Assembly (NCBI RefSeq): GCF_003334355.1
Contig: NZ_QOWP01000006.1
Reading direction: 5' to 3' (one strand)
DNA length: 64,000 bases
DNA from: Escherichia coli
Lineage (GTDB): Bacteria > Pseudomonadota > Gammaproteobacteria > Enterobacterales > Enterobacteriaceae
Shown: positions 23,956-30,349 of the stretch, piece by piece
Layout of the letters: each line of letters opens with the position of its first letter
How positions within the stretch are numbered: position 1 is the stretch's first letter
Made by a program: the position numbers and the translations under genes
Notes under the pieces: model-generated
What the model was told of the DNA's origin: nothing
Databases searched by the model: none
What the model saw: the letters and a program-made list of their open reading frames with translations, nothing else

Positions 23956-23983
23956 ATGTTCGTGAATTTACAGGCGTTAGATT

Positions 23984-24007
23984 TACATACATTTGTGAAT
24001 GTATGTA
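23984..24007. promoter_or_regulatory. AcrR operator: 24 bp perfect inverted repeat in the acrR-acrA divergent promoter region
   Basis: TACATACATTTGTGAATGTATGTA read directly; perfectly palindromic apart from the central bases. Confidence 0.85.
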
Positions 24008-24096
24008 CCATAGCACGACGATAATATAAACGCAGCAATGGGTTTATTAACTTTTGACCATTGACCAATTTGAAATCGGACACTCGAGGTTTACAT

Positions 24097-25309: not shown

Positions 25310-28462
<3,153 letters not shown>

Positions 28463-28480
28463 TACAACGTGTAATCACTA

Positions 28481-28504
28481 AGGCCGCGTAAGCGGCCTTT
28501 TTTA
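28481..28504 (+). terminator. Rho-independent terminator of acrAB
   Basis: AGGCCGC-GTAA-GCGGCCT hairpin followed by TTTTTTAT immediately after the acrB stop. Confidence 0.8.
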
Positions 28505-29007
28505 TGCATAACCTACGAACATTAAGGAGTAATTGAACCACCAACTCAGGATCTCATACGAAAACCAGTATTAACCACGGATAAAATTCATAAAAAATAC
28601 TGATTGTTAGTTAATTTATATTAAGTAGCGCTAATAGATTTAATAATCCATAATCATTTAGAGGCTATTCTTAATTATTTGCGGTAATTCTTTATTCATT
28701 CCTCGGTTATTACGTCATATTCAGAGCAATCCTGGTATTAGTGTCACCAATTTCATCTGGCGATAATCCTGAAATGTTATGAATAGTTCGAGCAAACTGC
28801 TTTTACCTGCTGCGGGTTAGTGCTAGTATGAAAAAGTGAGTCCTGTCCCGCTTCCTTCCTAATTGTAATTTTTCGTAATAATGCGATGAAAACCTGCAAA
28901 GAGTGGCTTATAGTTAAGCTAACAAACGAGAGGGCAAGTCCAGGTCAGTAAGTTTTTTCCATCCCGAAAGGTGTCCGTTAGTTCAACCGCTAAGAAGGGG
29001 ACGCGTT

Positions 29008-29382
29008 ATGGATGAATACTCACCCAAAAGACATGATATCGCACAGCTTAAGTTTCTCTGTGAAACCCTGTATCATGACTGCCTTGCAAACCTTGAAGAA
29101 AGCAATCATGGCTGGGTAAACGACCCAACCTCGGCGATCAACCTCCAGTTGAATGAACTGATTGAGCATATTGCGACCTTCGCACTTAATTACAAAATTA
29201 AGTATAATGAAGACAATAAGCTCATTGAGCAGATCGACGAATATCTGGATGACACCTTTATGTTGTTCAGTAGTTATGGTATTAATATGCAGGATCTTCA
29301 GAAATGGCGGAAGTCAGGTAATCGACTATTCCGTTGTTTTGTCAATGCGACGAAAGAGAATCCTGCGAGTTTATCTTGTTAG
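29008..29382 (+). CDS. tomB: Hha toxicity modulator TomB (YbaJ)
   Basis: ORF 29008..29382(+), 124 aa; SD AAGAAGGGG upstream; directly precedes hha. Confidence 0.9.
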
Positions 29383-29407
29383 AATTATTACAACCATGGG
29401 TAGAAGT

Positions 29408-29626
29408 ATGTCCGAAAAACCTTTAACGAAAACCGATTATTTAATGCGTTTACGTCGTTGCCAGACAATTGACACGCTGGAGCGTGTTATCGAGAAAAAT
29501 AAATACGAATTATCAGATAATGAACTGGCGGTATTTTACTCAGCCGCAGATCACCGCCTCGCCGAATTGACCATGAATAAACTGTACGACAAGATCCCTT
29601 CCTCAGTTTGGAAATTTATTCGCTAA
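29408..29626 (+). CDS. hha: Haemolysin expression modulator Hha (H-NS co-regulator)
   Basis: Start ATG 29408 inside ORF 29162..29626 gives 72 aa [35 protein letters not shown]...; Hha/YmoA family. Confidence 0.93.
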
Positions 29627-29797
29627 TAAATAATTCGCTTTCGGAGCTATAACCGGCTGTTTATTAAGAATTTTATACTTTTTCGCCATGAAGACATACC
29701 CTATGTGATCTTTATCACACAGATGTAATGGGAACGTTCTCTTCACTGACTTTTCGTCTTACTGTGTTGCCGCATTTTCAGCAACCGGAGGTCAGTA

Positions 29798-30349
29798 ATG
29801 AGCACAGAAAAAGAAAAGATGATTGCTGGTGAGTTGTATCGCTCGGCAGATGAGACGTTATCTCGCGATCGCCTGCGCGCTCGTCAGCTTATTCACCGAT
29901 ACAATCATTCCCTGGCGGAAGAGCACACATTACGCCAGCAAATTCTCGCTGATCTATTCGGTCAGGTGACAGAGGCTTATATTGAGCCAACGTTTCGCTG
30001 TGACTATGGCTATAACATTTTTCTCGGTAATAATTTTTTCGCCAACTTCGATTGCGTGATGCTTGATGTCTGCCCTATTCGCATCGGTGATAACTGTATG
30101 TTGGCACCAGGCGTTCATATCTACACGGCAACACATCCCATCGACCCTGTAGCACGTAATAGCGGTGCTGAACTGGGGAAACCCGTCACCATCGGTAATA
30201 ACGTCTGGATTGGCGGACGCGCGGTCATTAACCCTGGTGTGACCATTGGTGATAACGTCGTGGTAGCCTCAGGTGCAGTTGTCACAAAAGATGTCCCGGA
30301 CAACGTTGTCGTGGGCGGTAATCCAGCCAGAATAATTAAAAAATTGTAA
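29798..30349 (+). CDS. maa: Maltose O-acetyltransferase (hexapeptide-repeat acyltransferase)
   Basis: ORF 29798..30349(+), 183 aa; left-handed beta-helix hexapeptide repeats ([39 protein letters not shown]). Confidence 0.93.

Follow-up and report, generated by a model that had tools for sequence, protein, structure and literature searches.

The AT-rich acrB-tomB spacer of Escherichia coli as the probable regulatory region of the tomB-hha operon

Introduction

Hha is a co-repressor that aids H-NS in the silencing of virulence genes and horizontally acquired genes, and because of this role the control of its level bears on biofilm, persistence, and the regulation of virulence. The closest described system to the one treated here is the E. 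coli K-12 ybaJ(tomB)-hha promoter (PMC2408971, PMC3946193, PMC3415461); it is the same locus and differs from ours in nothing essential. In K-12, ybaJ(tomB) was induced in every microarray of an hha deletion, and a GFP fusion carrying the ybaJ region from -198 to -1 was up in an hha mutant and down upon Hha overexpression, in agreement with RT-PCR (Garcia-Contreras et al., 2008; PMC2408971). Ni-enrichment arrays from the same study placed Hha at its own promoter in vivo.

The orthologous operon of Yersinia pseudotuberculosis, ymoB-ymoA, resembles this locus in its published descriptions. Negative autoregulation by YmoA is strong, the ymoB mRNA rising 81-fold in a strain without YmoA (PMC8369931), and a CpxR motif precedes a transcription start site (TSS) located about 106 nt before the start codon. 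This motif is placed 56 bp upstream of TSS2 of ymoBA; CpxR~P shifts the ymoBA promoter in EMSA and activates a reporter, and the YmoA protein level is unchanged on CpxR activation (PMC13353760). Transcription of the Yersinia operon starts at two sites (188 and 106 nt upstream), whereas a single TSS has been mapped in E. coli and in Klebsiella.

More distant parallels are found in hns and stpA, which encode nucleoid proteins and are themselves silenced by H-NS, and in proU and bgl, classical H-NS-silenced promoters with long AT-rich regulatory DNA; in all of them, a sigma-70 promoter is surrounded by AT-rich DNA, as it is here, where part of that DNA is predicted to be curved. Both hns and stpA are under negative feedback by the nucleoid-associated factor that they encode, as is the case for Hha, and the stpA spacer is flagged for H-NS in the same SELEX table as the spacer studied here (PMC3946193). 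In contrast to these systems, Hha shows no specific DNA binding alone and acts via H-NS (PMC2408971). Moreover, unlike these four loci, tomB-hha has an activator box (CpxR) that abuts the -35 element, and we found no high-affinity H-NS nucleation motif in it.

Here, we describe the non-coding DNA between acrB and tomB in one E. coli genome. The main facts, namely the promoter, the TSS, the negative feedback by Hha, H-NS binding, and the Cpx input, are already published. To these we add a coordinate map, evidence that, of the non-coding elements, the CpxR-type box is under the strongest constraint in the family, and evidence that the length and AT-richness of the spacer are kept when its sequence is not. 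These additions are all modest and leave the current understanding unchanged.

The Locus and the Comparison Set

The window, by which we mean the whole stretch of 64,000 nucleotides that was analyzed, is 99.5% identical to K-12 MG1655 in reverse orientation; for its tomB part, the MG1655 (NC_000913.3) coordinate equals 509716 minus the window position. Three genes on the plus strand frame the region: acrB (25313-28462), tomB (29008-29382), and hha (29409-29627), the last two identified from the ORF list, the MG1655 annotation, and composition. They are followed by maa (29798-30349), 3' of hha. The acrB-tomB spacer covers 28463-29007 (545 bp), and tomB and hha form an operon under its control whose GC content is also low (~40%). 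A first-pass annotation of this DNA had singled out 28505-29007 as AT-rich and untranslated, a region whose start coincides exactly with the end of the T-run of the acrB terminator. All but two of 5,426 complete E. coli genomes (5,424) carry the 545-bp spacer, and RefSeq annotates no feature within it in MG1655 or the other E. coli, IS1 in a few strains excepted.

For comparison, we retrieved 80 orthologous loci, with each species represented by a single genome, from Escherichia, Salmonella, Citrobacter, Enterobacter, Klebsiella, Raoultella, Kluyvera, Kosakonia, and other genera. TomB identity in these loci ranges from 89 to 100%.

Composition and Conservation of the Spacer

The GC content of 28505-29007 is 37.2% and that of the full spacer 37.8%. 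Windows of 503 bp have a mean GC of 51.7% (sd 4.0%), and just 0.45% of them are as low as 28505-29007; the AT-richness first noticed by eye is thus confirmed by windowed computation, the region lying well below the local average. The composition follows a gradient, from 26% GC at 28560-28720 through 40% at 28720-28885 to 46% at 28886-29007. The segment 28562-28721, with 25.6% GC, is the minimum among all 160-bp stretches of the 64 kb, and we refer to it as the AT-rich core (no strand assigned). The many A/T tracts that had been reported were also recovered: the quoted example lies at 28614-28663, and A/T runs of at least 8 occur at 12.8 per kb in the spacer vs. 2.3 per kb window-wide, a 5.6-fold enrichment. 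The spacer is less extreme when set against other intergenic DNA. The corresponding MG1655 stretch has 43 intergenic regions with a pooled GC of 44.4%; the spacer is the longest of them (545 bp against a median of 150 bp) and has the sixth lowest GC. Low GC is also not confined to the spacer, since the island runs on through tomB, hha, and the hha-maa spacer (39-41% GC, 39% for the hha-maa spacer) to about 29800.

Two other AT-rich spacers were seen in the window. A second low-GC trough at about 57647-58105 (459 bp, 35.9% GC, with a 160-bp minimum of 27.5%) coincides with the spacer between cyoA and ampG, which lies upstream of cyoABCDE. The divergent promoter spacer between acrA and acrR (23956-24096) is AT-rich too, with 35.5% GC; in a ChAP-seq table, acrR is listed as H-NS-bound and acrA is not (PMC4720273).

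The upstream end of the spacer is marked by the intrinsic terminator of acrB (28480-28505, plus strand), the sole terminator that a scan of the spacer returned. It is composed of a GC-rich hairpin at 28480-28499 (AAGGCCGCG-TAAG-CGGCCTT) and a T-run, together conserved at 0.87-0.89 identity across 77 Enterobacteriaceae sequences. Matches to Trp_leader and isrK that fall over this terminator in Rfam were sub-threshold, and we set them aside as chance. Immediately downstream is a fast-evolving segment of about 70 bp (28506-28580, no strand assigned) confined to Escherichia loci. It is gapped in 81-98% of the 77 aligned sequences and strongly divergent among Escherichia species, and Salmonella, Citrobacter, Enterobacter, Klebsiella, and others have nothing at this position.

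The view that this region holds no convincing ORF stands, as the spacer contains only ORFs of 21-44 aa. On the plus strand there is a single one of 21 aa (28886-28951), which begins upstream of the mapped TSS; those on the minus strand (24, 40, and 44 aa) lie in indel-rich, poorly conserved DNA. We rejected all four as genes on these grounds. A 13-aa ORF with a TTG start, following AAGGAG in the Escherichia-only segment, was likewise rejected: its Shine-Dalgarno spacing is 3 nt, and it is not conserved even within Escherichia.

Across the Enterobacteriaceae, the dimensions of the spacer are kept and the sequence of its core is not. All 76 loci that contain both genes have an acrB-tomB spacer of 435-560 bp with 35-40% GC. 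A 160-bp core of 22-34% GC is present in every one of the 69 full-length loci, where it begins on average about 417 bp upstream of tomB, and the 3' end of acrB in the same loci has 52-59% GC. In the 77-sequence alignment, identity within the core is 0.4-0.7, compared with 0.51 at the four-fold degenerate sites of tomB, and the core sequence thus appears to evolve roughly neutrally. Identity is high at the -35, the -10, and the terminator, and roughly neutral elsewhere in the spacer. The functionally constrained DNA is the 60 bp that contain the CpxR-type box and the core promoter.

The tomB-hha Promoter and Its Leader

A promoter scan detected a sigma-70 promoter at 28886-28914 (plus strand), with the -35 ATGAAA at 28886-28891, a 17-bp spacer, and the -10 TATAGT at 28909-28914. 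It is conserved and lies at the correct distance from the mapped TSS, and the RpoD genomic SELEX gives identical hexamers for tomB-hha (Shimada et al., 2014; PMC3946193). The tomB TSS was published at position 480019 of NC_000913.2, minus strand, with 53 reads and a UTR of 87 nt (Kim et al., 2012; PMC3415461). As the published 51-mer that ends at this TSS, TTTCGTAATAATGCGATGAAAACCTGCAAAGAGTGGCTTATAGTTAAGCTA, matches 28871-28921 of the window, the TSS is 28921. The published map places no further TSS between tomB and acrA (PMC3415461), and the orthologous TSS of Klebsiella pneumoniae, at 97 nt from ybaJ on the upstream side, uses the same -35 and -10 (PMC3415461 supplement). In Salmonella, the proximal predicted promoter, p922, drives GFP, and the upstream p622 and p201 are inactive (PMC5133643).

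The tomB 5' UTR corresponds to 28921-29007 on the plus strand (87 nt) and contains the Shine-Dalgarno sequence GAAGGGGA at 28993-29000. The MFE of the leader, -22.9, does not stand out from those of its shuffles (mean -22.4, z = -0.15). Covariation in a 26-species alignment is essentially nil, with 8 consensus pairs and 1 compensatory change, and an Rfam scan of 28000-30000 with E up to 10 returned no match. Besides the promoter described above, scanning the spacer gave neither a second promoter-like site nor a promoter-terminator pair. The first-pass annotation had offered a long structured 5' UTR or an sRNA as possible contents of the region, and both readings are refuted: the mapped TSS leaves a leader of 87 nt that is unstructured by the measures above, and for an sRNA we found no Rfam match, no second promoter or terminator, and no listed TSS, in DNA that is poorly conserved upstream of 28860.

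Three further features of this part of the operon were observed. The motif CCAUCCC (28959-28965), conserved in the tomB leader, has its complement in the Shine-Dalgarno region, GGGGAU(G) at 28996-29002; in most genera all six pairs are perfect, and E. coli has a single mismatch. Judged by this complementarity, it may be an anti-Shine-Dalgarno element; both sides are nearly invariant, and for this reason covariation cannot test the pairing. A strong promoter-like site, TTCGCA-18-TATAAT, is located inside tomB at 29179-29208. Two published hha TSSs also fall within tomB, one 115 nt upstream of hha (about 29293) and the other 16 nt upstream (about 29392), so that hha transcription is possible independently of tomB.

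A CpxR-Type Box Upstream of the -35

A direct repeat of the CpxR type, GTAATTTTTCGTAAT (28865-28879, plus strand), was identified by conservation and pattern match. It reads GTAAT-TTTTC-GTAAT, ends 7 bp upstream of the -35, and is centered about 49 bp upstream of the TSS. This GTAAT-N5-GTAAT arrangement fits GTAAA-N5-GTAAA, the established direct-repeat consensus of CpxR. The surrounding block, TAATTGTAATTTTTCGTAAT (28860-28879), shows 97-98% identity over 77 sequences; it is the most conserved non-coding block and is conserved above much of the coding sequence. The pattern GTAA-N6-GTAA has its only match in the window here, with about 1 expected by chance per 64 kb, and it recurs in 57 of 69 loci at 137-157 bp upstream of the tomB ATG.

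Published data connect the operon to the Cpx response. The CpxR regulon of RegulonDB includes tomB and hha, and the CpxR iModulon includes tomB; in E. coli ChIP-exo, tomB is not among the direct CpxR targets (PMC7657598). A LolCDE inhibitor, which is Cpx-inducing, raised tomB 6-11-fold. Our literature search for ybaJ together with CpxR retrieved nothing specific. CpxR may act here partly by countering silencing.

H-NS, Hha, and the AT-Rich Core

Such AT-rich DNA had been proposed as an H-NS substrate, and the proposal agrees with published data. Genomic SELEX found an H-NS site in the tomB-acrB spacer (PMC3946193), and ChAP-seq detected H-NS in vivo at hha, maa, and the maa-hha spacer (PMC4720273, S2/S3). 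The acrB-tomB spacer is absent from the H-NS ChAP-seq entries of Higashi (2016), which contain those three. Hha reaches the chromosome solely via H-NS/StpA (PMC3686432).

The suggestion of autoregulation by Hha is equally backed by the published induction of ybaJ(tomB) in hha mutants, the Hha-repressed fusion, and the presence of Hha at its own promoter. From the primers of that study (28810-28829 and 28989-29007; PMC2408971), the Hha-repressible promoter fragment from -198 to -1 corresponds to 28810-29007 on the plus strand. The K-12 hexamers, TSS, Hha autorepression, and SELEX H-NS site all map to this fragment and the spacer. Since the Hha-responsive fragment does not include the AT-rich core, the published autoregulation can operate without it.

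A prediction of curvature with wedge parameters, which is indicative only, gave two bends above the 99th percentile, at 28560-28610 and 28860-28885. The mean predicted curvature is moderately raised, at 23.9 degrees against 18.6, and stronger bends occur elsewhere in the window. The high-affinity H-NS motif TCGATAAATT is not enriched in the spacer: at up to 2 mismatches there is one match, located inside the CpxR box, and 48% of equal-sized windows do as well.

Taken as a whole, the first-pass annotation was right about the H-NS substrate and Hha autoregulation and wrong about the long UTR or sRNA, and it missed the most conserved element, the CpxR-type box.

Proposed Regulation of tomB-hha and Alternative Explanations

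We consider it likely that 28505-29007 serves as the intergenic DNA from which the tomB-hha operon is regulated, with the following anatomy and mechanism. Transcription of acrB would end at the conserved intrinsic terminator at 28480-28505, and that of tomB-hha would begin at 28921 from a moderately weak sigma-70 promoter, giving the unstructured 87-nt leader. Under envelope stress, CpxR~P would occupy the box just upstream of the -35 and increase transcription. The 300-400 bp farther upstream would be untranscribed and strongly AT-rich; together with the AT-rich promoter-proximal block and the tomB-hha genes, this DNA would form a low-GC island of about 1.3 kb bound by H-NS. Hha would join the H-NS filaments and so close a negative feedback loop on tomB-hha. 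In this scheme, the TSS, the Hha repression of the -198 to -1 fragment, the binding of H-NS (to the spacer in vitro, at hha/maa in vivo), and the binding of CpxR~P in Yersinia come from published experiments; the composition, the anatomy, the conservation of the box and promoter, and the constancy of spacer length and AT-richness come from the present analysis.

As to the distal core (28562-28721), which lies upstream of the promoter and is not known to be transcribed, we lean slightly toward a contribution to silencing, for which it may serve as a nucleation or extension platform for H-NS. This candidate role is suggested by its conserved length, position, and composition, by its being the most AT-rich DNA in 64 kb, by the SELEX site, and by the two predicted bends; the near-neutral divergence of its sequence and the unenriched TCGATAAATT-type motif argue against it. 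The same two observations favor another explanation, in which the core has no regulatory role and is slack spacer, all regulation residing in the ~150 bp next to the promoter, and the AT-richness arises from mutational bias with weak selection or from an ancient foreign origin of the tomB-hha island. Also consistent with this explanation are the Hha-responsive reporter, which does without the core, the GC content of the spacer, only the sixth lowest of 43 local intergenic regions, and the ~70-bp Escherichia-only segment, a sign that insertions are tolerated. Against slack DNA speaks the constancy of the spacer: in 69-76 genomes, drawn from many genera and with a flanking acrB of 52-59% GC, its length stays within 435-560 bp and an AT core of 22-34% GC is found about equally far from tomB. 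The AT-richness of the core, unmatched by any other 160 bp of the window, and the SELEX H-NS site in the spacer also count against it, and on balance we find this explanation rather unlikely. More doubtful still is the most elaborate version of the silencing model, according to which the core would be a dedicated H-NS/Hha loading platform that sets the gain of Hha autoregulation, with CpxR counter-silencing at the invariant box, and the AT-rich bent DNA would also make the locus a recurrent IS1 target, so that isolates repeatedly rewire or lose the control of tomB-hha.

Two other explanations concern the spacer as a whole. TomB has been viewed as an antitoxin, and the promoter could be a type II toxin-antitoxin operator in which TomB binds palindromes between the -10 and the start site, silencing by H-NS and Hha being secondary. 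Salmonella TomB does shift the p922 fragment in EMSA, and two palindromes between the -10 and the TSS were reported (PMC5133643); in E. coli, Ni-enrichment arrays suggested binding of YbaJ at the ybaJ gene (PMC2408971). In the Salmonella tomB mutant, however, the reporter fell rather than rose (PMC5133643), which is inconsistent with simple repression by TomB. In addition, YmoB of Yersinia is not antitoxin-like, and TomB is described as promoting Hha oxidation with no stable complex (PMC5155140); an operator of this type seems improbable. A still smaller probability attaches to an unannotated transcript in the spacer, whether an extended leader of tomB with structure, an sRNA, or the message of a small protein. 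The gap of 545 bp is the longest locally and includes small ORFs of 21-44 aa, and AT-rich DNA often has spurious promoters; Yersinia ymoBA, moreover, has its second TSS 188 nt upstream (PMC13353760). Against such a transcript stand the single TSS mapped in E. coli (28921), the use of the same promoter in Klebsiella, the inactive p622 and p201 fusions of Salmonella, and the scans, which gave no Rfam match at E = 10, no terminator other than that of acrB, and no second promoter-like site. The leader (z = -0.15) lacks covariation, the ORF stretches are indel-rich and poorly conserved, and the start of the 21-aa ORF precedes the TSS. We therefore regard this last explanation as very improbable and retain the H-NS/Hha-controlled, CpxR-responsive spacer as the preferred reading.

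PdhR Site and IS1 Insertions

A PdhR genomic-SELEX peak has been assigned to "tomB" (PMC7660256), and we considered the peak and its box as a feature of the spacer. The predicted box AACGGAATCGACCAGCT is located at 27992-28008 and the peak at about 28170, both inside the 3' part of acrB, and the candidate was rejected. The paper used older K-12 coordinates, with an offset of 776.

The low-GC tomB-hha island, from 28622 to 29442, is a recurrent target of IS1 in natural E. coli isolates. We mapped eight independent insertions, each with a distinct target duplication of 8-10 bp. One falls in the AT-rich core (28622-28630, strain SEV1), one in the second CpxR half-site (28876-28883, GF4), and one between the -35 and the -10 (28900-28908, FAM21845). 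Inside tomB there are four, in SY033 (29172-29180), COL60J (29177-29185), FCI23 (29207-29215), and Ec-RL2-1X (29227-29236), and the last is at the 5' end of hha (29433-29442, UID2309220009). Such recurrence may mean either that IS1 prefers AT-rich or bent target DNA or that changes in tomB-hha expression have been selected. An intact promoter segment (28830-28970) is missing in 21 of 5,423 complete E. coli genomes.
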